Shown here: piece by piece, positions 2,586 to 43,634 of the stretch
Layout: every line of letters starts with the position of its first letter
Numbering within the stretch: position 1 is the stretch's first letter
Origin: Dehalococcoidia bacterium
GTDB lineage: Bacteria; Chloroflexota; Dehalococcoidia; Plut-88900
DNA length: 64,000 nt
Direction: 5' to 3'
Assembly: GCA_965116945.1 (NCBI GenBank)
Contig: OZ220734.1
Coordinates: forward strand, 598,610-662,609
Made by a program: the position numbers and the translations under genes
The notes under the pieces: model-generated
Database searches by the model: none
The model's input: only the letters and a program-made list of their open reading frames with translations
What the model was told of the DNA's origin: nothing

Positions 2586-3164
2586 TTATCGCTGCCAGCC
2601 TCTTGAACAATCACCGCTACGGTTTTCTGCGAATAGATCTAGGCTATCATCCGGCCAAGGAGTTTTATCCTTCCTTTGGAATGCCCTGCGAACTTTGGGC
2701 ATTACTCTCCTGGCGACTCTTCTCCGAGGCCACTTATAGATGGCTGAGAAAGAGTCATTGCCGTCAATATTGAGTGCCAGCCGCTGTGGAATCAGGTGAG
2801 GGTTGCGGTCTTCCGGGTCCTTCCGGTAATCAGGGTGATGCGGCAATAGGAGACCAACAACCCCACACCTCTTATTTCTTGGTCGGTCGATGATACTGGC
2901 GGAAATTTCCCAATCGACGTGTTTTCTCTGCCAAGTGCATGGACCAATCAGGACGATGGTTACTACAGCGTCGGCAATGTGGTCATCTCGAATCCTGCGA
3001 CGTATTTCGTCCAGAGGGAGGTTTTCATCGTGGATATCCCCAGGGCTGACAGACTTGTCTATAGCTTTACTGTTCAGTGCCTGCACTAGGCGGTTCTTGT
3101 ACTCCTGGTCGCCCTCGTGGTAGTAACTGATGAATACTTTATATTTGGTTACCTTAGGAGCCAT
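2586..3164 (-). CDS. TIR-domain protein (ThsB-like / DUF1863 TIR_2 family), second TIR gene of the cassette
   Basis: From the internal Met: MAPKVTKYKVFISYYHEGDQEYKNRLVQALN...AVVTIVLIGPCTWQRKHVDWEISASI. This matches the bacterial TIR signature (KVFISY.H.D ... VLIG..T..R.WV.WEI with the conserved Glu). AGGAG lies 9 nt upstream of this ATG; the longer ORF start (3239) would overlap the upstream gene by 60 nt. Confidence 0.75.
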   Translation of the reverse strand: MAPKVTKYKVFISYYHEGDQEYKNRLVQALNSKAIDKSVSPGDIHDENLPLDEIRRRIRDDHIADAVVTIVLIGPCTWQRKHVDWEISASIIDRPRNKRCGVVGLLLPHHPDYRKDPEDRNPHLIPQRLALNIDGNDSFSAIYKWPRRRVARRVMPKVRRAFQRKDKTPWPDDSLDLFAENRSGDCSRGWQR

Positions 3165-3178
3165 AGCTTTTGCTCCTA

Positions 3179-3619
3179 CTACAAAACCCAACCCCAGGAC
3201 ACCAGCACCGTCGAAGTTACTAAAACATAGAATGGCCATATAGATATCGAACCCAAAAGACAGCGCACAACCAAAGGAGACCCCATGCCAACTGGAATTA
3301 CTTTATAAAGGTCGGTACGCTCCAAGTTGCCTTCGTGCAACTTGGATACAAAGTTGTTCTGCGATTTGATGAACGCCCTTTCAAGCGCCAAGTAATAAGA
3401 ATCTAGGAACATGAACAACAATGTTGGCGCCAAGGCTATCAGCACATGCCTAGGCTCTCCCGTCCGCGCCACCAGCACCAGAATGGCTGCGACAAGGGTG
3501 ACGCACCACACCTTGCAATAGCGGCTGTTCTCCGCCATTCGGGTGATTACGCCCTGCATTATCTTAAGGTGCTTTTGGACAGCGGGGGAATCGTGGTCTA
3601 TTTTCGGGTTTCCTGCCAC
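3179..3619 (-). CDS. Small (146 aa) predicted 3-TM membrane protein; candidate effector of the TIR cassette
   Basis: Hydrophobic segments CKVWCVTLVAAILVLVA, HVLIALAPTLLFMFLDSYYLAL and a C-terminal SISIWPFYVLVTSTVLVSWGWVL. Tightly packed between two TIR genes (12-15 bp gaps) on the same strand. No recognisable SLOG, Macro or SIR2 domain. Confidence 0.6.
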   Translation of the reverse strand: MAGNPKIDHDSPAVQKHLKIMQGVITRMAENSRYCKVWCVTLVAAILVLVARTGEPRHVLIALAPTLLFMFLDSYYLALERAFIKSQNNFVSKLHEGNLERTDLYKVIPVGMGSPLVVRCLLGSISIWPFYVLVTSTVLVSWGWVL

Positions 3620-3630
3620 GTTTATGCTTC

Positions 3631-4125
3631 TCAGTGTTTCTTCCGAATCGAGATTGCCTCTTCAACCCAATCTGCAAGATTGTCTCGTATGTGGGAGTAA
3701 AGGTTCTTGCTGTTTGTATACCCACTGCCAAAAGTCTTCACGATGTTTGATAAGTTCCTTTGACCAACAGTGAAATTTTCAAACGGATTTCGTCCTTTCA
3801 GGGCGGTTCTACCATTCGCATTCTTCAGCATATGGATGTAGATGCCTAGTAGCCCCTTCTCGTCGTTCCAGGTTTTTTTTATTTCATATTTGATCCACTT
3901 GCGTTCGGCTGTCTTGCTCCCTATTAGGACGATAACGCAGGATTTCCCAAACATTTGTCTGTCAATCCATTTCTGGATTGCGGCATCGCCGCCTCGCGCT
4001 ATAGTCTCCCACTCGTTATCCGAAACGGGACCATCTTCCTCAACGACGCCCATGTTCCTAATCGTAGCTGCACGCCAAGCGTCACGGGTGTAGTGAAAGC
4101 TGAAGAATGTTCTCCTCTTGACCAT
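3631..4125 (-). CDS. thsB: Thoeris ThsB-like TIR-domain protein
   Basis: MVKRRTFFSFHYTRDAWRAATIRNMGVV...CVIVLIGSKTAERKWIKYEIKKTWNDEKGLLGIYIHMLKNANGRTALKGRNPFENF follows, almost motif for motif, the Bacillus cereus ThsB pattern as I recall it (VFFSFHY..D..R..VRN ... CVLIGS.T..R.WV.YEI ... GI.I ... KG.NPF). GAGAGGA lies 7 nt upstream of the ATG. Confidence 0.8.
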   Translation of the reverse strand: MVKRRTFFSFHYTRDAWRAATIRNMGVVEEDGPVSDNEWETIARGGDAAIQKWIDRQMFGKSCVIVLIGSKTAERKWIKYEIKKTWNDEKGLLGIYIHMLKNANGRTALKGRNPFENFTVGQRNLSNIVKTFGSGYTNSKNLYSHIRDNLADWVEEAISIRKKH

Positions 4126-30602: not shown

Positions 30603-33038
<2,436 letters not shown>

Positions 33039-33139
33039 CCGGTGTTGCGGTCTCCTGTATTGCGCGTCGGGTCCGTGCAATGGGAGAAATTACCACGCAG
33101 GGGGTGGAGGCGCAAGGATGGGGTGACGATTGGACTAGC

Positions 33140-33215
33140 GTGGGCCACCCTCCCGCTCATACTTCGACTACGCTCCCGCCCGAGGCGGATCTGCGACAGC
33201 ATGAGCGGCCCCTCC
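33140..33215. repeat. Module-B repeat copy in the leuS upstream region
   Basis: CCGCTCATACTTCGACTACGCTCCCGCCCGAGGCGGATCTGCGACAGCATGAGCGG (hairpin CCGCTCAT/ATGAGCGG). Confidence 0.7.
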
Positions 33216-33282
33216 GCCAAAGGAGTTCGGGTTATTCAGTTGTGGGGGGAGGGGTTTTGATTGTTCTGTTGGGTTTTGGGGC

Positions 33283-33646
33283 GGCGATGGAAGGTCCGGG
33301 ACTCTATGGGAAGAAATCGGCGGGTCTATGGATATGTGAACGGGCCAGGCGGTCCGCCATAGAGGTTGAACCACCGAAAGAGCGGGCAGAAGCCCGCCAG
33401 AGTCGTCGTAGTAGACGCCAGAGGAATCCGGTTTACGGACGGGATTCCAACAAGGCCGAATGGGGCCTTCAGATGCACCGGCAAGGTCAATGCCGGTGGC
33501 ATAGACGCGGTTCTTGCGGTATCCGCGCAGACGGCATGTCCTTCAGAGAGGATGCGCCGTAGAGAGTGTATGGACCTTCCATCGCCTGGAAGTTAGGGAA
33601 GGGGCACGGGACCCGGTGGGTCGGGTGGGCTTCCCTGGGTTTTTTG
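33283..33646 (+). ncRNA. Candidate structured RNA (or MITE) closed by a 15-bp perfect inverted repeat and ending in an intrinsic terminator
   Basis: GGCGATGGAAGGTCC (33283-33297) is perfectly complementary to GGACCTTCCATCGCC (33572-33586). Internal hairpins include GCGGGCAGAAGCCCGC and CACCGGCAAGGTCAATGCCGGTG. The 3-prime hairpin AGGGAAGG...CTTCCCT plus TTTTTT lies at 33594-33646. Confidence 0.4.
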
Positions 33647-33749
33647 GTTCCTCCTTGAGGTGGGTGTCGGGTCTAGACTGAGGAGGAATATAGCACATGT
33701 GTTTGGGTGGGGTCAAGCGTGCAAAGCAGGGTGCGCTAGCATCTATTCT

Positions 33750-34847
33750 TCAGGATTTTACAGCCCACAAATCGAATTCCTGGAAAGCCTCGGAGCGTAT
33801 ACCGAAATGACTAGCTTGACGCTTTCCAATGGAGGCAGACCCCGCATTGCATCGAGTCTGAATGCGCCAATCCGTATTCGACAGCGAAGCACGCAGGATT
33901 TCAACTGGGTCGGTATTGCGATCAGGTATGCGTCCGAACCGTATCACCATCCGAGCACCGTCTTTACTTACGTTTGCACAATTTTGCCAAACCTGCGAAA
34001 GCTGATTGGCAAAATCCTCGGGACTACTATGGATGAGTTGTTCTTCTTGAGAATAATCTACAGAATCTTCCCCTCCTAGGAACCATAACCTGAGCCATTG
34101 ATCAGGGCGATAGGTCCTAAGGCCATAATATGGAGGAGAAGTAATTACCCAATCAAAACGTTGCCCTTTTAGCCTTGCATTAAACAGGATTGAGTCCCTG
34201 CTATCTCCAAGAATGACACGCGAACAAGGCTGGGGAAGAGGGTCTTGATAGAACCTTGCGGCCCGGCGGGCCACTACTTCTCTAATATCTATTTTCCTCG
34301 GCCTAAGCTCATGCTTACGCCAGAAGGAGACGGCATATCTTGGCTTTGGTGCGTAAGTACGGGGACATTGATTGGAGAAATAAGATGGGCTCCCTTTTGA
34401 AACAGGCCCATGCAGGGCTCCAAGCATAATAGCCCGGAGGGCTATGCGGGAAGTTTCACGACAACTGTGCACTAGTGAGTTGCGTATTTTTATAAGAGAT
34501 AGTAGTGTTGATTCCTCAAAAGCTAGCTTCCAAAACTCCCCGGACGGAATATCTTCAGGGTTGCCCTCTTGTTCAAGAATTTTGTCAAGAGTGCGTAATA
34601 TGGCTTGAGGGTTTGTTGATACGAGCTTGGCCTCCGTTAATGCGGCTGCGAGCGGATGGCTATCTATCCCCACACTTGCTAGACCTTTAAGGCGGGCTGC
34701 CATATTTGTGGTTCCACGCCCACAGAATGGGTCAAGTACAGATACCGTAGTCCTTTGTTCCCTGCTAAGAACTTTCCGCGGAAATGAGAGGGGGAACATC
34801 GTGAAGTAGGGACAGATTGCGTTGAGTGAGTCGGGACTAGTGAGCAT
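33750..34847 (-). CDS. SAM-dependent amino-methyltransferase (N6-adenine / N4-cytosine DNA MTase-like): motif I DPFCGRGTT, motif IV SPPY
   Basis: Start at MLTSPD..., whose ATG overlaps the TAA stop of the upstream ATPase (TAATG). VLDPFCGRGTT, and later VITSPPYYG. Sits in a low-GC island. Confidence 0.7.
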   Translation of the reverse strand: MLTSPDSLNAICPYFTMFPLSFPRKVLSREQRTTVSVLDPFCGRGTTNMAARLKGLASVGIDSHPLAAALTEAKLVSTNPQAILRTLDKILEQEGNPEDIPSGEFWKLAFEESTLLSLIKIRNSLVHSCRETSRIALRAIMLGALHGPVSKGSPSYFSNQCPRTYAPKPRYAVSFWRKHELRPRKIDIREVVARRAARFYQDPLPQPCSRVILGDSRDSILFNARLKGQRFDWVITSPPYYGLRTYRPDQWLRLWFLGGEDSVDYSQEEQLIHSSPEDFANQLSQVWQNCANVSKDGARMVIRFGRIPDRNTDPVEILRASLSNTDWRIQTRCNAGSASIGKRQASHFGIRSEAFQEFDLWAVKS

Positions 34848-36928
34848 TATTTCTGGATTGCTCTTACCCAGGTTGTATTCCTGCCTTCGGGCGTAAAGGG
34901 CTCCCAATGTTCACCTTTCTTGCCTAATAAGCTATTCATAGCCTTCTCAACCAAGAGATAAGCAAACTGCCCTCGATCATCCATATGCTCAGGTAGCATT
35001 TCTAGGAAGAATGCTCTTACCGTTCCCCATGCCACACCATCGTTCTTGATTTTCTTGAACATTTCACTATTGCTGAGGGTTTCAATAACATAGGTCTCCA
35101 GAGATTCTAGTGCATCTACTGATTCAAACTTGGGGCATTCTGTATTCTGATTGCGAGAACTTTGCGCTTTAGATAATGCAGACGTAGCATTCCCGATTAG
35201 CTTTTGGAGTTCCTTTGCATAGGTGGGTATGGAAGGGCGATCGTAATGTCCATCGAGCAACTGGTCATGCAGGTCCTCAAACGATAGAACCCGCAATGGA
35301 ACAGGATATTGCTTGCCTTCTACAGCAGAACTCCAAAAGACCCCTTGACCTCGTATTGTCTCATTCAGCAATGTACTCAAAATATCTTGACCAAAGTGCG
35401 CGTTAGCTGCCTGAACATTCCTCAGGTCTCCGGCGGACAAAAGATGGAACAGAAACCAGTTGTCACCCTGGCTCAGAATTTCAAATGGTATGCTACCTGG
35501 CTGCTGCGTAACTAATACCGCTCCCAGATCATATTTACGACCTTCTTTCACCCATTGGATGTAAGGTTCAGATGTTACGGTTCTTTCATTGAGTACTGCC
35601 TGGGCCTCTTCTATAACAGCAATAGTAGGGATTGTTTTGGGTTGAGCGGCAGTGAACTGCTCTTGGTTTCGGTCAAATATTCGACGTAGGATCAACCCAG
35701 ACAAGACAAGCGCTGGACCAGCAGATATTTGCGAAACGTCCACTACACACAATTTCCCATCTGTTAGGGCTTTCAAAATCATATCCATTAGTTGGCTTGA
35801 TGGATCGTGTAGCATACGTACTATACGGGTCGCATTAGCCCTTGCTGCTAAGGCTTCCATTTCCTGATTTGGCTCCAGTCCAAGCAACGTTTTTATTTGT
35901 TGAATCGAAGCGTTATTTCCTTCGGAGTAAATTAAGTTGACCAACTCTATCCAATTATTTCGTCTGATGCTTCTGAGTTTTTGGACGTTCTGTTGATCTT
36001 GGCGTTCCACCGGAAGCGCTATAGATACAACATCTTCGGGATTCAATCTGCGAATATCTAAACGGATTGCTCCTGCTACGAAGGATTGATAGAACTCACT
36101 GGGAGCGCTTCTGGATGTGAACACAACTAGGTGCTCTTCCATTCCGGGGACGTCACAAAGGCCGGGGCGGCCTTTGTCATCTGGCCAGAAATATTCTCCG
36201 TCTGGATCAAAGAGGATCGTGCCCACTGGTACTCTACGTCCATGTCTTTTCTCTACAGTAGGGGTCCGCTCATATAGCTTGCTGAAAAGGAGTTTATTGA
36301 GGTTGGATTTGCCAAAGCCAGCGCGGGCAAATATAAAACTCCTTCTAGCCACCAAACTATCTACTGCAAAGTTCACCTTGACTTCTTCAGATTGTGGCTG
36401 CATCCATTCCTCTGTTGCCAAAGATGAAGGGCCATAAAAGTACTCGCCTAGGGCAAAGTGACCGATTGTCGCACCTTCCACGTTGTGCCCAACTATTTCC
36501 CTAAGTACATCCCCGGAAAGAAAAGCGACGCGGCTACCCACATGTGGAAGGCGTCGGTGTGACGCTACAAAGTTGAGTTTTCCTTCAGGCGTAGCCCGGA
36601 CAACCCCTAATACCCTGATGTTGACCTGATACCTGAGGTATTGCTCCCTTAGATCCTCAGGGATGGGACGGTCTTCCTGTATGGCCCTTATGTTGAATTC
36701 CTCCCCTGAGCCAGAGGACAGCCTACCTTGTGATGATAGTGAGGCTATCCTGCCCAATACGGCTTCGTCAGGAGTCTCCAACTGTACCAACAGGAACTGA
36801 CCATGCATTGGGATGCTCTGGAAATCCTGTCGATACGGCAAAGCTAAATCAGCGTGGAATTCCATACCGCCTTCACGGAATCCCCGGAACACTCCCACTA
36901 TGTTTTCTTGAGTGAATAACTTAATCAA
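34847..36928 (-). CDS. HerA/FtsK-superfamily ATPase (DUF87-like) with N-terminal HAS-barrel-like domain
   Basis: Walker A ARAGFGKSN, Walker B IAVIEEAQ and LVTQQP motifs. N-terminus IVGVFRGFREGGMEFHADLAL...HGQFLLVQL resembles the HerA HAS-barrel. Confidence 0.65.
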   Translation of the reverse strand: MIKLFTQENIVGVFRGFREGGMEFHADLALPYRQDFQSIPMHGQFLLVQLETPDEAVLGRIASLSSQGRLSSGSGEEFNIRAIQEDRPIPEDLREQYLRYQVNIRVLGVVRATPEGKLNFVASHRRLPHVGSRVAFLSGDVLREIVGHNVEGATIGHFALGEYFYGPSSLATEEWMQPQSEEVKVNFAVDSLVARRSFIFARAGFGKSNLNKLLFSKLYERTPTVEKRHGRRVPVGTILFDPDGEYFWPDDKGRPGLCDVPGMEEHLVVFTSRSAPSEFYQSFVAGAIRLDIRRLNPEDVVSIALPVERQDQQNVQKLRSIRRNNWIELVNLIYSEGNNASIQQIKTLLGLEPNQEMEALAARANATRIVRMLHDPSSQLMDMILKALTDGKLCVVDVSQISAGPALVLSGLILRRIFDRNQEQFTAAQPKTIPTIAVIEEAQAVLNERTVTSEPYIQWVKEGRKYDLGAVLVTQQPGSIPFEILSQGDNWFLFHLLSAGDLRNVQAANAHFGQDILSTLLNETIRGQGVFWSSAVEGKQYPVPLRVLSFEDLHDQLLDGHYDRPSIPTYAKELQKLIGNATSALSKAQSSRNQNTECPKFESVDALESLETYVIETLSNSEMFKKIKNDGVAWGTVRAFFLEMLPEHMDDRGQFAYLLVEKAMNSLLGKKGEHWEPFTPEGRNTTWVRAIQK

Positions 36929-36936
36929 CGCGCCAC

Positions 36937-38157
36937 CTAGTATCTTCGTTGTGCAGGATCAACATCTCTTAGTTGGAACTCGTCAAGGCTAGGCGACTCG
37001 GAGCCCAGCGCCGCACGGAGACCGGAAATAACCTCGTCTTGAATAATATCAAAGTCAAAATCGACCAATGCTGCGTTCTCATGTGCCTTCTGAAGACACA
37101 TAGGATAAAAGGGAACAGGGAAACCATTATTAGCATCAGACAGCAGGCATCCGAGTATCGCTCCCGCTTCCCTTTCTTGCGGGACAAATATATCAACCGG
37201 CCAAACCGGATCGTTGGATCTGCTACCGAACTTTACGAAGAACATTTTACCAGCGACGAATTTGTTTACCTCACCACCTTCCAGTCCTACGTCATCCCCT
37301 CGGGCATATTCAGCCCAAATATAGGCCTTCTTCTCCAAATCTCTTGGTACTAGCGTGTAACAAGGATATCCAGCTGTAAGTATGTGCTCCAAAGACATGG
37401 CCAAACGATAGCGATCCAGAACTTTGGAGTGCTTTGCCAGACCAACCAGATAGATGTTCCTGCGATGCTTTCGCTTGTGTCTCTCAATGGCTTGCTTAAA
37501 TCCGTCGCTCAGGCGTATGAACAAGTCCTCGGCAAAAACCTTGCTCCTCAATAGACCATCACGGACTATGATTGTGTCAGTACCGAATTCCTTCTCAGTT
37601 AGTATTGAGAAGAGCACCGCCCATTCCATGAGCTCACGATAAACTTGAACCCAACTCGGGCTGGAAGGCCTGTCGTCATCATTCCTTCGAATCATGTTGC
37701 TCAGTCGCGTTAGGTCTTGGACATTTAGGAATTCCATCATCTTACCTAGCGCCGTGATTGGAACACCTTTGTCATCAAACTGCATGCGGCTGAGTTCAGT
37801 TACGCTAGTTGTAGGTGATATAGCCTCTAGGCAATACTCGTTGTTGCTGGAATCAACAACACGCACCAATTGCACCAGAAAAGGGTCAAACTGGATTCGA
37901 TTGTTGCCTCCGTCCGTTCCAACTAGAGAAAAGGAGGTGGTCATTCTTGGCTGTACCTGGCGAACTGTGGATTGGAGTGGCTTAATTTCGACCCTGAGGT
38001 CGTCCAATAGGCTCATGTCCTGCCTAATCCGATTCTCGATCTCGCCCTTCAATATGTCGTAGCTCTGTAAATCTATCATTACATCCTCTAGTCGACTTAG
38101 TGAAGCCCACAGTGACGCGGGTTCGATATATCCTACCACTTGCCGATCTGAGATCAT
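36937..38157 (-). CDS. NurA-like nuclease (RNase-H-fold, HerA partner); start uncertain (M at 38157 or 38079)
   Basis: SLVGTDGGNNRIQFDP (NurA motif-I-like D) and a C-terminal GFPVPFYPMCLQKAHENAAL (NurA-like Y...AH). The ORF's first 117 aa overlap leuC on the opposite strand and were rejected. GAGGA RBS lies before the 38079 ATG. Confidence 0.55.
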   Translation of the reverse strand: MISDRQVVGYIEPASLWASLSRLEDVMIDLQSYDILKGEIENRIRQDMSLLDDLRVEIKPLQSTVRQVQPRMTTSFSLVGTDGGNNRIQFDPFLVQLVRVVDSSNNEYCLEAISPTTSVTELSRMQFDDKGVPITALGKMMEFLNVQDLTRLSNMIRRNDDDRPSSPSWVQVYRELMEWAVLFSILTEKEFGTDTIIVRDGLLRSKVFAEDLFIRLSDGFKQAIERHKRKHRRNIYLVGLAKHSKVLDRYRLAMSLEHILTAGYPCYTLVPRDLEKKAYIWAEYARGDDVGLEGGEVNKFVAGKMFFVKFGSRSNDPVWPVDIFVPQEREAGAILGCLLSDANNGFPVPFYPMCLQKAHENAALVDFDFDIIQDEVISGLRAALGSESPSLDEFQLRDVDPAQRRY

Positions 38158-38218: not shown

Positions 38219-39637
38219 GTGAGGTCCGTTGAGATGCCCCCTAAGACTATGTTCGAGAAGATTTGGGATGCCCATGTGGTGCACCAGGACCCGGGGCAGG
38301 ATGCGATCCTGTATGTGGACCTGCACCTGGTGCATGAGGTGACTTCCCCGCAGGCCTTTGAGGGGCTGCGGTTGTCGGGGAGGGGGGTGCGGAGGCCGGA
38401 GCTGACGGTGGCGACGGTCGACCACTCCATACCGACATGGGAGCGCTCCCGGCCGACGGAAGACCCGATTGCGGCGCAGCAGATCGCTACGATGCAGGAG
38501 AACGCCAAGGACTACGGCCTGCCGTTCTACGACGTGCACAGCGACGGGCAGGGAATCGTGCACGTTATCGGGCCGCAGCTGGGGTACACGCAGCCGGGGA
38601 TGCTGATAGTGTGCGGGGACAGCCATACGTCGACGCACGGGGCGTTTGGGTCGATGGGTATGGCAATCGGGACCACGCAGGCGGAGCACGTGCTGGCGAC
38701 GCAGTGCGTCCAGCAGGCGAACCTGCAGACGATGGAGCTGCGGCTGACGGGGAGCCTGCCCTCGGGGGTGGGGGCGAAGGACATCATCCTGGGGATCATC
38801 GGGGAGATAGGGATAGACGGGGCGAGCGGGTATGCGGTGGAGTACACGGGCGAGGCGATACGGGGCCTTTCGATGGAAGGTCGGATGACGGTATGCAACA
38901 TGTCGATAGAGGCGGGGGCGCGAATCGGGATGGTTGCGCCGGACGAGACGACTTTTGAGTACGTGAAGGGGCGTGGGTTTGCGCCGAAGGGGGAGGCCTG
39001 GGAGGAGGCTGTTGAGAAGTGGCGCAAGCTGCCCACGGACACCGATGCCAAGTACGACCGGTTAGTCGAGATTGACGCGGGGTCGATGGAGCCGTACGTG
39101 ACCTGGGGGACGAACCCGGGAATGGTGGCGAAGGTGTCGGGGAACGTGCCTGATCCGGCGGGTATGGAGTCGGGGGCGGAGAAGGAGGCGACGGAGAGGG
39201 CGCTGCAGTACATGGGCCTCGAGGCTGGGAAGGCTATCGAGGACATCAGGATCGACCGGGCGTTCATAGGGTCGTGCACCAACTCTCGGATCGAGGATCT
39301 GCGAATTGCGGCGGAGGTCGCCAAGGGCAAGAAGGTGGACCCGAAGGTGTATGCGATGGTCGTGCCCGGGTCGTTCGTGGTGAAGCAGCAGGCGGAGCAG
39401 GAGGGGTTGGACCAGGTATTCAAGGACGCGGGTTTCGACTGGCGGGAGGCGGGGTGCTCGATGTGCCTGGGGATGAACCCCGACATTCTGCAGCCGGGCG
39501 AGAGGTGCGCGTCGACGTCCAACCGGAACTTCGAGGGGCGTCAGGGCAAGGGCGGGAGGACTCACCTTGTGAGCCCGGCGATGGCGGCGGCGGCGGCGAT
39601 TGCGGGGCACTTTGTCGATATTCGGGACTGGAGTTAG
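38219..39637 (+). CDS. leuC: 3-isopropylmalate dehydratase large subunit
   Basis: Aconitase-family motifs ([20 protein letters not shown], and the Fe-S cysteines in ...GSCTNSR...CSMC). Confidence 0.95.
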
Positions 39638-39646
39638 GGGGCAGGC

Positions 39647-39850
39647 ATGAAGTTAACCGTTGTTCTCGAACCTAGCGATGAGGGCGGATACACCGTCATT
39701 GTTCCCTCCCTGCCGGGTTGCATAAGCGAAGGGGATAGTCGGGAGGAGGCGTTGACGAATGTGAGGGAAGCGATAGGGCTTTGCCTGGAGCTAACCGAAT
39801 TCGACCACGTAAACAAAGCAAATGATGAGATAGTTTCTCTGACACTCTAA
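39647..39850 (+). CDS. HicB-like (UPF0150) small protein inserted between leuC and leuD
   Basis: MKLTVVLEPSDEGGYTVIVPSLPGCISEGDSREEALTNVREAIGLCLE. Confidence 0.7.
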   Translation: MKLTVVLEPSDEGGYTVIVPSLPGCISEGDSREEALTNVREAIGLCLELTEFDHVNKANDEIVSLTL

Positions 39851-39882: not shown

Positions 39883-40500
39883 ATGCAAGCATTCAAGACT
39901 TTAACCGCAACCGTGGCCGTTCTGGACCGATCGAATGTGGATACGGACCAGGTTATTCCGAAGCAGTTCCTGAAGAGGATCGAGCGGACGGGATACGGGG
40001 AGTTCCTGTTCTTTGACTGGGGTCGCAAGGAGGATGGGTCGGCGGACCCGGATTTTGAACTGAATCTGCCCCAGTACCAGGGGGCGGGGATCCTGGTGAC
40101 GGGGCCGAACTTTGGGTGCGGGTCATCCCGGGAGCATGCGGTGTGGGCGATTCACCAGCACGGGTTCCAGGCGATAATTGCCCCGTCCTTCGCAGAAATC
40201 TTCCACAAGAACTGCTTCCAGAACGGGTTGTGTCCCGTATTGCTGGAGGAGAAGCAGGTGTCGGAGATCATGGAAAGGGCTCGGGGGAAGGCGCCCGGGT
40301 CATATTCGCTGACCATTGACCTGGAATCGTGCGTACTCTTCGATAGCGAAGGCTTCGAGCTTCCCTTTGTAATCCACCAGGACAAGGCCACGCACGATTT
40401 CCGGCGTCGGTGCCTGTTGGACGGGTTGGACGAGATAGACCTGACGCTGCAACACGAGGATGCGATTCTCGCCTACGAAAAGGCCCGCGGGATAGCCTAA
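39883..40500 (+). CDS. leuD: 3-isopropylmalate dehydratase small subunit
   Basis: 205 aa LeuD/aconitase swivel domain; follows leuC. Confidence 0.92.
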   Translation: MQAFKTLTATVAVLDRSNVDTDQVIPKQFLKRIERTGYGEFLFFDWGRKEDGSADPDFELNLPQYQGAGILVTGPNFGCGSSREHAVWAIHQHGFQAIIAPSFAEIFHKNCFQNGLCPVLLEEKQVSEIMERARGKAPGSYSLTIDLESCVLFDSEGFELPFVIHQDKATHDFRRRCLLDGLDEIDLTLQHEDAILAYEKARGIA

Positions 40501-40512
40501 AGGGGGTCGGTC

Positions 40513-41991
40513 ATGGACTGGCGGGAGGACTACAAGCGGAAGCTCGGGTCTCCGGAGGATGCGGCCGCCCGCGTGAAGTCGGGGGACCTGGTGCACACAG
40601 GCCTCCTGCCCATGCCGCGGTTGATTGCGGATGCGATAGTCGGGCGTCGGGAAGAATTGGGGCACCTGGACGTTACGATGGTCGAGCCGGAGTACGATCC
40701 GGGCTTCCTGGACAACGCTTTCTCGGACAAGTTTTCCGTCACTGTCGAAATCCACATAGGCAGTGTGGCGATCGATGCGATGGACGAGAAGAGGGTCGAC
40801 TACTCGCCGGTGCTGTTTTCCACGTGGTTCAAGCCGGTGACCGACCCTCGGCCTAACTTCCGGACGCCGGACGTGTTCCTGTGCACGGTGTCGCCGCCCG
40901 ACGAAAACGGGTATTGCAGCTTCGGGGCGGACCTGTGGAACAAGCACACCCTTGCCAATATCTCCGGCACGGTCCTGGCGGAGGTGGATGAACGGTTCAT
41001 CCGCACTTACGGGGACAACCACATCCACGTTTCCGAGATAGACGCCTTCGTGGAAAACACGCCCCCGCCGATGCACGACGAGGAGTTGGAAGGCATCATC
41101 GAGGCCATTGAGGAGGCGGACAGACGGGAGACGCTCAGGGAGATCGCGGGAGCTCTGGAGTTTGAAAGGCGTCGGGACTTTGTGCCGCAGCTGGCGGACC
41201 TTGAGTTATCGCAGATGCGGCAGTGGGCGGGGTTCTACGCGGGCCTATCGGACCCGGGCCCCGGGCCCCGGCGGATTGCCGAGTATGCTTCCGAGATGGT
41301 GCCGGATGGCGCGACCATCCAGCTCGGGACGGGGACGCCTTCAACGCTTCTGCCGAGCCTCGGGGCGTTTGACGAGAAGCATGACCTGGGCATTCACTCG
41401 GAGATGGGCGCTCCGGGGATGATAGACCTTATAGAAAAGGGTGTTGTGACGGGCAAGTACACCAACACTCATCCCGGGGTGGCCCGGCTCAGCGCGCTGA
41501 CAGCTACGAAGATCAGCGAGCAGAAGTGGGCGGAGTACAACCCCAAGCTGGAACTGCTGGAATCCCACGACGTGGTGAACATTGCGGCGATATCGCAGAT
41601 TGACAACATGTGCACGATCAACAACGCGTTGTCGGTGGACCTGTACGGGCAGATAAACTCGGAGACGGTGTTCGGGGGACGGCTGGTGGCGGGGACCGGG
41701 GGGCAGACGGAGCTTCACATCGGGGCTACGCAGTCAAAGGGGGGTCGGGGGATAATCCTGCTAAGGTCCACGGCATTAGGGGGCTCGATGTCCCGGATAG
41801 TGCCTCAGCTGGAGGAGGGGGCGATCGTGACCATACCCCGGACCTTCGCCGACATAGTGATAACGGAGTACGGGGTGGCGCAGCTGATGGGGAAGTCGAA
41901 CCGGCAGAGGGCGGAGGAGCTGATAAGCATTGCGCACCCGGACTTCAGGGCGGAGCTGCGTCGGGAGGCGGAGAGGATGATGTGGCCGTAG
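40513..41991 (+). CDS. Acetyl-CoA hydrolase/transferase family protein (4-hydroxybutyrate CoA-transferase-like), copy 1
   Basis: 492 aa; N- and C-terminal AcetylCoA_hydro domains (...GTGTPSTL...GGQTELH...). Confidence 0.8.
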   Translation: MDWREDYKRKLGSPEDAAARVKSGDLVHTGLLPMPRLIADAIVGRREELGHLDVTMVEPEYDPGFLDNAFSDKFSVTVEIHIGSVAIDAMDEKRVDYSPVLFSTWFKPVTDPRPNFRTPDVFLCTVSPPDENGYCSFGADLWNKHTLANISGTVLAEVDERFIRTYGDNHIHVSEIDAFVENTPPPMHDEELEGIIEAIEEADRRETLREIAGALEFERRRDFVPQLADLELSQMRQWAGFYAGLSDPGPGPRRIAEYASEMVPDGATIQLGTGTPSTLLPSLGAFDEKHDLGIHSEMGAPGMIDLIEKGVVTGKYTNTHPGVARLSALTATKISEQKWAEYNPKLELLESHDVVNIAAISQIDNMCTINNALSVDLYGQINSETVFGGRLVAGTGGQTELHIGATQSKGGRGIILLRSTALGGSMSRIVPQLEEGAIVTIPRTFADIVITEYGVAQLMGKSNRQRAEELISIAHPDFRAELRREAERMMWP

Positions 41992-42157: not shown

Positions 42158-43634
42158 TAGACTGGCGAGAGGACTACAAGCGCAAACTCGGGTCTCCGGA
42201 GGATGCGGCGGCGCTGGTCAAGTCGGGGGACCTGGTACACACAGGATCTCTGCCCATACCCCGGCTGATTGCGGATGCAATAGTTGCGCGTCGGGAGGAG
42301 TTTGAGCATCTGGACGTCAAGATGGACGCCCCAGAGTACGACCCCGGATTCCTGGACAACGCCTTCTCTGACAAATTCTCCGTCACCGTCGAAATCCACA
42401 TAGGCAACGTGGCAATCGATGCGATGGACGAGAGACGGATAGACTACTCGCCGGTATTGTTTTCCACGTGGTTCAAGCCGGTGACCGATCCCAGGCCGGA
42501 CTCTCGGGCGCCGGACGTGTACCTGTGCACCGTATCGCCGCCCGATAAGAACGGTTACTGCAGCTTCGGGGCGGACCTGTGGAACAAGCACACGTTTACT
42601 AAGATATCTCGAACCGTTTTGGCTGAAGTCGACGAACGGTACATTCGCACATTTGGCGACAACTACATTCACGTATCGGAGATAGATGCCTTTGTGGAGA
42701 ACACTCCTCCACCGATGCTGGACGAGGAGCTCGACGGGATCATTGCGTCGATAGGCGAAGCTGAGAGGCGGGAGACGCTGAGGGAGATTGCGTCGGTGCT
42801 GGAGTTTGACAGGCGTCGGGACTTTATTCCGCAAGTCGCCGACCTAGACTCAGCCCAAATGCGACAATGGGCGGCGTACTATGCGGGCCTGTCGGACCCG
42901 GGCCCGGACGTGCGTCGGATGGCCGAGTACGTTTCCGAGATGGTCCCGGACGGCGCGACGCTACAAATTGGTATGGGGACCCCTTCAACCCTGCTGGCGA
43001 CTCTGGGCACCTTCGACAAGAAGCATGACCTGGGGATTCACTCGGAGATGGGTGCGCCGGGGATGATCGACCTTATAGAGAAAGGCATTGTGACAGGCAA
43101 GTACACAAACACACATCCGGGTGTGGCAAGGCTCAGCGCCCTGACGGCCACGAATATCCGCGAGCAGAATTGGGCGGAATACAACCCCAAGCTGGAACTG
43201 CTGGAGTCCCGCGACGTGGTGAACATTGCGGCGATTTCGCAGATCGACAACATGTGCACGATAAACAACGCTTTGTCGGTGGACCTGTACGGGCAGATCA
43301 ACTCGGAAACGGTGTTCGGGGGCCGGCTGGTGGCGGGGACCGGGGGGCAGACGGAGCTTCACATCGGGGCTACGCAGTCGAAGGGGGGTCGGGGGATCAT
43401 CCTGCTAAGGTCGACGGCTTTAGGGGGTCGATGTCCCGGATAGTTCCACAGCTGGAGGAAGGGGCGATCGTGACCATACCCCGGACTTTCGCCGACATCG
43501 TGATAACGGAGTACGGGGTGGCGCAGCTAATGGGGAAGTCGAACCGGCAGAGAGCGGAGGAGCTGATAAGCATTGCACACCCAGACTTCCGGGCAGAGCT
43601 GCGTCGGGAGGCGGAGAGGATGATGTGGCCTTAG
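42158..43634 (+). pseudogene. Degraded tandem duplicate of the acetyl-CoA hydrolase/transferase gene (start ATG to ATA; a 1-nt deletion frameshift near the 3-prime end)
   Basis: GGTCGGTCATAGACTGG here versus GGTCGGTCATGGACTGG in copy 1. ORF 42322-43443 ends ...LGGRCPG* where copy 1 reads ...LGGSMSRIVPQ. The remaining C-terminus continues in the +1 frame (43170-43634). Confidence 0.75.

Follow-up and report, generated by a model that had tools for sequence, protein, structure and literature searches.

A methyltransferase-linked NurA/HerA-type gene cassette in a Dehalococcoidia bacterium, a probable restriction-modification-like defence system

What do three co-directional genes of foreign composition do between two leucine genes of a Dehalococcoidia bacterium, and do they act as one system? 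The locus lies in a stretch of 64,000 nucleotides (nt) of contig OZ220734.1 (assembly GCA_965116945.1, positions 598,610 to 662,609), hereafter called the window, in which an island of low guanine-plus-cytosine (GC) content separates leuS from leuC and leuD. A first reading made from the sequence alone (the sequence-only reading) described the island as a NurA-like nuclease, a HerA-like ATPase and an amino-methyltransferase (MTase), and proposed that a translocase-nuclease complex here takes the place of a classical restriction endonuclease. We followed up this proposal by family, profile and structure comparisons, by surveys of related loci in species genomes and metagenomes, and by comparison with known systems. 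Taken together, the results make it probable that the three genes form a horizontally acquired, restriction-modification-like (R-M-like) defence system, built on a pair of proteins whose closest solved relatives are TdpA and TdpB.

Results

Three coupled genes between leuS and leuC

All three open reading frames (ORFs) are read from the minus strand and occupy the gap between leuS (30603-33038, minus strand; TIGR00396, E 1e-301) and leuC/leuD (leuC at 38234-39637, E 5e-232, and leuD at 39883-40500, E 1e-74, both on the plus strand). The co-directional arrangement described before is borne out by the ORFs themselves, and the position between leuS and leuCD by the family matches of the flanking genes. 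The whole cassette spans 33746-38089 on the minus strand (about 4.3 kb). Gene A (36937-38079) encodes a TdpB-like nuclease of NurA fold with 380 amino acids (aa); gene B (34847-36928), which starts with TTG, encodes a TdpA-like ATPase of the HerA/FtsK class with 693 aa; and gene C (33750-34847) encodes a circularly permuted DNA MTase of the N6_N4 type with 365 aa. Between the stop of gene A (36937) and the TTG of gene B (36928) there is a gap of 8 nt, and the TTG is preceded by AGGTGG. The overlap of the MTase start with the ATPase stop that had been pointed out is read directly in the sequence as TAATG (34845-34849, running from 34849 to 34845 on the minus strand): gene B ends with CAG AAA TAA, and the last A of this stop codon is the first base of the gene C ATG.

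The nuclease had been drawn as a protein of 406 aa from 38157. We replace this by 380 aa from 38079, because the homologues of gene A are 379-381 aa long, a public gene call for this very sequence gives 380 aa, a GAGGA stands 5 nt ahead of the ATG at 38079, and nucleotide similarity to the nearest related cassette (L086) starts at 38089, 10 nt ahead of the same ATG. For gene B, an identical (100%) call of 693 aa is present in public data.

Gene A encodes a nuclease with a NurA-like fold

No match to protein A was obtained in the Pfam, NCBIfam or PADLOC scans, nor in a search of the PDB with the single sequence. Its family falls into more than 3,130 clusters when grouped at 90% identity and into 425 at 50%, and a profile built from 42 diverse members matches one solved protein, TdpB (8wet_G, E 3.1e-13), to which the identity is low (~15-29%). 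Many Argonaute PIWI domains, together with endonuclease V, follow in the fold comparison, and Foldseek gives the same picture. The fold is RNase-H-like/NurA, in keeping with the nuclease partner proposed for the ATPase, and the likeness of A to TdpB and to NurA is seen only through family profiles and the predicted fold. The Pfam families that one would have expected from the sequence-only reading were recovered for B (DUF87) and C (PF01555), but not for A, to which the NurA family PF09376 gave no match.

The conserved residues of the family are compatible with this fold. Asp56, within the motif GTDGG (codon at 37912-37914, minus strand), is the candidate first catalytic carboxylate and is an aspartate in 38 of the 42 members; E152 is kept in 41, and position 174 is D in 33 and E in 8 (41 of 42 together). 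D296, D315 and H333 are likewise conserved in this set, and the motif LQKAHENA is also present in A. The candidate catalytic residues hold across the family down to 26% identity. Given the fold match, we infer that these acidic and histidine residues make up an RNase-H-like active site.

Gene B encodes a HerA-class ATPase related to TdpA

Protein B matches PF01935 (DUF87, E 3.7e-20) and the PADLOC HerA model (E 5e-20). Its best PDB match is TdpA (8wet_A), with E 2.6e-18 for the single sequence and 1.2e-22 for the profile; the profile matches archaeal HerA (4d2i) with E 4.8e-16, and the SIR2-HerA and DUF4297-HerA proteins more weakly. The motifs that had been quoted for B, ARAGFGKS (residues 201-208), VIEEAQ (438-443) and VTQQP, are all present. 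Walker A (GFGKS, residues 204-208; 36305-36319, minus strand) is invariant in 29 homologues and aligns with the GFGKSN of TdpA, a P-loop that the two proteins have in common. In Walker B (VIEEAQ; 35600-35617, minus strand), V438, E440, E441, A442 and Q443 are invariant. Two details of the earlier description were not confirmed. The standard P-loop is [AG]-x4-G-K-[ST] (PROSITE pattern); the AGFGKS that had been called a deviant Walker A is part of ARAGFGKS, which fits this pattern and is therefore ordinary. A HAS-barrel-like N-terminus found no support from profiles, since Pfam gave DUF87 only. At its other end, B carries a C-terminal winged-helix domain (residues 606-693; 34850-35113, minus strand) that the aligned TdpA chain does not reach.

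Gene C encodes a permuted amino-methyltransferase

Protein C matches PF01555 (E 3.5e-12) in two stretches that stand in swapped order, the PADLOC model MTase_II (PDLC03325) colinearly over residues 14-307 (E 1e-15), and PDB entry 2zie (E 5.5e-5). The two MTase motifs reported before are both present and are conserved in the family: motif I, DPFCGRGTT (residues 39-47; 34707-34733, minus strand), is exact in 55 of 62 members and reads DPFxGRGTT in 60, and motif IV, SPPY (residues 237-240; 34128-34139, minus strand), is found in 61. The distance from motif I to SPPY is always 195-200 residues among these 62 members and is about 196 in C. A role as an RNA methyltransferase was considered and rejected, as the Trm11/UPF0020 matches are marginal (E 0.02-0.06) and concern motif I alone; against these stand the PF01555 and MTase_II matches and the tight linkage of the MTase to its neighbours, so that a DNA MTase, rather than an RNA MTase of the Trm11/RlmL kind, is retained.

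SPP[YF] is typical of N4-cytosine MTases, which is a tendency and not a rule. The target of C would be an exocyclic amino group; the SPPY form of motif IV and the permuted, beta-type architecture of the MTase make N4-cytosine the likelier one. Among cytosine-N4 methylases, circularly permuted enzymes form a recognised class (PMC10853773).

The trio recurs in many phyla, often beside defence genes

A scan of one genome per species (185,579 species genomes) gave 233 loci, 80 of which were examined. Room for B was present in 79 loci, and in each of them A and B were neighbours in constant order; room for a C-type MTase was present in 73, of which 64 have one next to the pair, lying downstream in 59, upstream on the same strand in 4 and inverted in 1. 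The trio is thus syntenic in other genomes, and no fourth conserved gene was found around A-B in the 80 loci. A sacsin/NOV_C gene that was considered as a fourth component proved to be TmtA of Tiamat. The hosts belong to Chloroflexota, Cyanobacteria (Acaryochloris), Bacteroidota, Verrucomicrobiota, Actinomycetota (Acidimicrobiales), Planctomycetota, Latescibacterota, Abditibacteriota, Nitrospirota, Acidobacteriota, Bacillota and several classes of Pseudomonadota. Across the loci, protein A is ~63-75% identical, B mostly 57-73% and C 40-68%. Recurrence of the same order in the examined loci, which come from many phyla, is far more than chance would give.

Many of the immediate neighbours come from known defence systems or from mobile DNA: JetC/JetD (Wadjet), SMODS (CBASS), an Eco57I-like gene, DrmD (DISARM), BrxF and BrxH (BREX), TmtA (Tiamat, in only 5 loci), a HamC-like gene (DUF3223), a PIN toxin-antitoxin pair, WYL regulators, integrases and transposases. 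No mre11/rad50 was found among the conserved neighbours in the 80 loci.

The cassette appears to have been acquired as a unit

The GC content is 0.476 in the cassette and 0.477 in 33750-38157, against 0.599 for the remaining window; the 35-45% estimated earlier was too low, as windows of 500 nt give 0.44-0.51. Plus-strand GC skew is positive (+0.1 to +0.3) in nearly every 1-kb bin of the window, whatever the orientation of the genes. The exceptions are two low-GC islets, one of them the cassette, and a few bins near 59-63 kb. Within the cassette the skew falls to about zero or turns negative, which is a second sign of foreign origin beside the low GC.

The nearest relatives are L086, whose protein A is 93% identical, and L087 (84%), and in both the cassette stands at another chromosomal site, between a pyridoxal-dependent decarboxylase gene and a GYD-domain gene. 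The DNA alignment with L086 (80% identity) runs from 38089 to 33746 and ends 4 nt past the stop of gene C. As nucleotide homology stops at the gene borders, the transferred unit is the three genes and almost nothing more. These sequence comparisons show a cassette-like horizontal spread, and the cassette of the window appears to have been acquired as a unit. No direct or inverted repeats were found bordering the cassette, and no integrase or transposase adjoins it in the window or in L086 and L087. Rfam gave nothing at the gathering threshold over the whole window, nor at E <= 1 in the spacer between leuS and the cassette, and ARAGORN found no tRNA, so the cassette has no tRNA or RNA-gene attachment site. 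No sigma-70-like site was found upstream of gene A in a scan for consensus promoters. Protein A had no match among the PLSDB plasmids or the INPHARED phages, and a single fragment was found among 2.9 million viral contigs. The spacer itself, from the leuS start to the cassette (33039-33749, ~700 nt), has a host-like GC content of 0.596, no Rfam match and no convincing ORF. It holds a perfect inverted repeat of 15 nt (33283-33297 and 33572-33586) and a sigma-70-like promoter on the minus strand (33716-33687) that is directed at leuS.

A compact cassette that has no mobility genes of its own and yet stands at unrelated sites in many phyla might also be explained as a mainly selfish addiction module, in which loss of the genes would dilute methylation and leave the nuclease to kill the cell, so that the cassette would persist without real benefit against phages. 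Classical Type II R-M systems do behave as addiction cassettes. We nevertheless consider this very unlikely as the main explanation: it is compatible with defence, being the same mechanism seen from another side, and loci with A-B but without the MTase would be lethal under strict addiction.

Distant relatives carry other partner genes

A metagenome scan with a distant A subfamily (26-33% identical to protein A of the window) gave 80 loci (L091-L170), in 64 of which a B-type ATPase was adjacent. In at least 30 of the 80 loci, the third conserved gene was DruA/DUF4338 (PF14236, E 1e-72 to 3e-102), usually in the order DruA-A-B (for example L137:4838-5995, L150:4797-5999 and L133:1496-2701). Elsewhere the pair has a canonical, non-permuted PF01555 MTase divergently upstream (L092:4701-5702, E 2.6e-50) or a QueC/QatC-like PP-loop protein beside it (L101:9238-10494). 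In L097, an ORF of the same size stands at the position of the L092 MTase. The DruA-like and QueC-like partners were compared with solved structures without an informative match; no TdpC chain was among the matches, only QatC (E 6e-4). The different partners in L092 and L101 suggest that the partner gene has been swapped repeatedly in this distant branch, and the A/B pair looks like a restriction chassis that is combined with several partner genes, two of them unrelated methyltransferases.

Behind some other distant pairs stand genes for RecQ, for Lhr or for DuOB, the last with or without HRDC (L119:3890-5182, L123:9218-10645, L128:7978-9465 and L146:4042-6831), and the context of these pairs looks more like repair than defence. 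Could the cassette of the window then be a housekeeping repair locus, that is, a bacterial NurA-HerA end-resection machine with an unrelated MTase beside it? Besides these neighbours, the match of B to archaeal HerA speaks for it, and the cassette does resemble the end-resection pairs of archaea and Deinococcus (PDB 2ygk, 4d2i, 7f6d and 9x1l) in having an RNase-H-like NurA fold and a HerA/FtsK-class ATPase side by side. The classical HerA-NurA context is one of mre11/rad50 linkage in archaea and of vertical inheritance. In contrast, the present cassette is mobile and of foreign GC content, shows no mre11/rad50 linkage and has a methyltransferase partner in most loci; close relatives occupy other insertion sites, and the distribution is patchy, with 233 loci among the 185,579 species genomes scanned. 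Moreover, the repair proteins are far more distant matches than TdpA and TdpB. That the cassette is mobile and foreign in composition, that its neighbours are defence-island genes and that Pfam NurA gives no match to A all argue that it is not a classical HerA-NurA repair pair, and we regard a housekeeping role as highly improbable.

Other features of the window

The second low-GC islet (2586-4125, minus strand) has a GC content of 0.476 at 3001-4000 and does not have the GC skew of the host. Genes for two ThsB-like TIR-domain proteins (PF08937, E 4e-18 and 1.9e-26) flank an ORF of 146 aa in it, and the islet may be another acquired defence locus. Between leuC and leuD lies a HicB-like antitoxin gene of 67 aa (39647-39850, plus strand; PF15919, E 1.1e-10; GC 0.505), for which no HicA partner is visible. 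Beyond leuD, two closely similar CoA-transferase-like genes stand in tandem (40513-41991 and 42322-43443), with repeated antisense ORFs; the first belongs to the butyryl-CoA:acetate CoA-transferase family (E 3.5e-61), and the pair looks like a recent tandem duplication.

Discussion

How might the three proteins work together? We propose that C methylates the host DNA and so would supply a self-mark, and that A and B form a complex like those of TdpAB or HerA-NurA. By homology to TdpAB, B would be the DNA-feeding ring and a dimer of A the cutter: driven by ATP, the ring would pull duplex DNA through its pore to the RNase-H-fold nuclease, which would cut both strands processively. Incoming unmethylated DNA, such as that of a phage, would be shredded, whereas methylated self DNA would be spared, with the mark either blocking loading or translocation or turning the complex off. 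The C-terminal winged helix of B is a candidate reader of the site or the mark, or may be a dock for the MTase; alternatively, the MTase itself could read the mark as a recognition subunit. The coupling of the genes in the operon, with the short A-B gap and the TAATG overlap, supports this scheme, and so does the independent pairing of the distant A/B branch with an unrelated, canonical PF01555 MTase in L092. Further support comes from the TdpA match of B, the conserved motifs of all three proteins, the synteny, the foreign composition, the defence-gene neighbours and the near absence from phages, plasmids and viral contigs. None of the three findings that were to refute the sequence-only reading (no NurA or RNase-H-like fold, no synteny elsewhere, an RNA methyltransferase) was obtained. 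Its modification-dependent translocase-nuclease system is accordingly the reading that we favour, with the defence role and the dependence on methylation as its predicted parts.

Several observations weigh against this scheme. The AlphaFold2 (AF2) model of A has low confidence over residues 53-83, which is exactly the GTDGG region, and none of the libraries Pfam, NCBIfam and PADLOC 2.0 has a model for A. Of the nine loci with room for a C-type MTase that have none beside the pair, one is degraded and eight have intact A and B. Among these eight, L031, L032 and L040 have WYL and HsdM-type methylase genes upstream (the methylase in two full copies in L032 and L040) and a DUF3223 gene downstream; in L043, whose contig begins just ahead of A, only the downstream DUF3223 gene is seen. 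The remaining four (L036, L038, L039 and L054) have a UvrD-like helicase gene and TmtA upstream and no MTase within 7 kb, so that these hosts may tolerate A-B in the absence of this methylation, or may carry the MTase elsewhere in the genome. The MTase, unlike those of many R-M families, does not have a hypervariable target-recognition region. The way in which TdpAB tells self from foreign DNA is not simply transferable, because a base methyl sits in the major groove and not on the backbone that the pore grips. Finally, the occurrence of part of the distant A/B relatives beside RecQ, Lhr or DuOB-HRDC genes hints at repair roles.

Some of these points would equally fit the same machine with methylation in another role. 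In this alternative, A-B would shred linear DNA from its ends and leave the circular chromosome intact, like RecBCD or archaeal HerA-NurA. The MTase would then have another purpose: it might recognise DNA or recruit the complex, as a subunit does in Type I/III or BREX-like systems, act as an epigenetic regulator, or protect against other restriction systems. The intact A-B pairs without a C-type MTase (8 of 73 loci) and the missing hypervariable specificity region of the MTase are in its favour, and archaeal HerA-NurA is known to cleave both strands of double-stranded DNA (dsDNA) in linear, end-labelled substrates, the authors suggesting a possible destruction of foreign dsDNA (PMC12977600). 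Against this, the MTase co-occurs in 88% of the loci, its start is coupled through TAATG and the three genes are transferred together, which points to a single obligate function. Moreover, the homologous TdpAB has as its partner an enzyme whose modification marks self DNA, and a second, unrelated MTase family in the distant branch is what would be expected if protective modification matters. We therefore hold an end-dependent shredder to be unlikely, and methylation as the self-mark remains our preferred reading.

The sequence-only reading stated that no characterised system had such a composition. This is outdated, as the restriction arm of TdpABC is a homologous HerA/NurA-type pair (8wet and 8wfd). 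TdpA reportedly forms a hexamer around duplex DNA, with TdpB as a dimeric nuclease; phosphorothioate in self DNA is said to inhibit translocation and cutting by TdpAB, and the backbone sulfur that is sensed is said to touch the translocating ring. TdpAB has been deposited as a complex (PDB 8wet, 8wfd with AMPPNP and DNA, and 8y1k). One paper describes tdpABC as a phosphorothioate-based R-M system in which the modification is made by tdpC alone (PMC12914056), and another lists tdpABC among the phosphorothioate (PT)-based R-M systems (PMC13223576).

The cassette shares with TdpABC the design of three genes, with a restriction arm of two proteins and one modification gene. It has the TdpB-type nuclease of NurA fold, the TdpA-type ATPase encoded beside it (profile E 1.2e-22 and the common GFGKSN), and the order of nuclease before ATPase, which is also that of the TdpB relative L171. 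It differs in its third gene, by whose identity we judge the difference, as this is a PF01555-type amino-methyltransferase and not TdpC. Furthermore, the mark would here be a base methyl and not a backbone sulfur, B carries an additional linker and winged helix (~140 aa), and the hosts are mesophiles of many phyla, whereas TdpABC comes from extreme thermophiles. The cassette family is also far larger than the set of true Tdp relatives retrieved. These are rare in the databases searched: a search with the TdpB fragment from the HMMER alignment gave two matches only, on short contigs. As the defining modification enzyme is replaced, the cassette is not Tdp in the strict sense.

Other known systems are further away. 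The anti-phage systems SIR2-HerA and DUF4297-HerA (PDB 8j4u, 8wiv, 9c1m, 8ziq and 8xau) likewise use a HerA-type hexameric ATPase as scaffold or motor for defence, and the PADLOC and NCBIfam models for HerA anti-phage proteins do match B, although its NCBIfam score (62 bits) lies well below the 800-bit cut-off of NF042943. Their effector is SIR2 or a Cap4-like DUF4297, whereas here it is a nuclease of NurA fold; no SIR2 or DUF4297 match was found in the cassette in the Pfam and PADLOC scans. These systems, which were reportedly described as anti-phage systems in 2020, lack a modification gene and work through abortive infection. Because the effector differs, the cassette is not a HerA system of that type. 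With Type I/III, BREX, DISARM and Dnd/Ssp systems it shares a self-marking enzyme and a nucleoside triphosphate (NTP)-driven motor coupled to restriction, but the motor here is a ring translocase of the HerA/FtsK class, not a superfamily 2 (SF2) helicase or an ABC/AAA ATPase, and the nuclease is RNase-H-like, not PD-(D/E)XK, HNH or PLD. Of the generic features of R-M systems, an MTase with motifs I and IV is present; A does not have a classical endonuclease fold (PD-(D/E)XK, HNH, PLD or GIY-YIG), and the cassette has no second nuclease gene beside A. In full-text searches of the literature we found no description of a methylase-linked NurA/HerA system, although an earlier mention may exist. 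Papers on a D. radiodurans m4C R-M system, on the SXT/R391 integrative and conjugative element (ICE) and on a reappraisal of Dnd were considered and are unrelated to the cassette. The restriction logic is known from TdpABC (2025), and the methylase-coupled form appears to be the new part.

If our reading is right, the cassette would represent a common R-M design, spread over at least ten phyla, that has not been described before and that is missed by the PADLOC, Pfam and NCBIfam models. The principle of TdpAB, in which a ring translocase feeds a NurA-type nuclease, would then extend from a rare phosphorothioate system of thermophiles to base methylation. This poses the mechanistic question of how a pore that grips the backbone could tell methylated from unmethylated bases, for which the winged helix of B is a concrete candidate. 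Beyond the cassette itself, it is a tentative possibility that pairs like TdpA and TdpB are a general restriction chassis for different self-marking enzymes (TdpC, the permuted SPPY MTase, the canonical PF01555 MTase, the PP-loop protein and DruA). DruA is the signature protein of type I Druantia, and we know of no functional assignment for it. Its presence in the place of the MTase in a sister clade links DruA to a TdpAB-like restriction arm and offers a testable lead. Should the chassis be general, DruA would be predicted to be a DNA-modifying or DNA-marking enzyme, and the clade of the window would provide the first case of a HerA-type motor able to tell a base methyl mark apart, perhaps with the help of the added winged helix.

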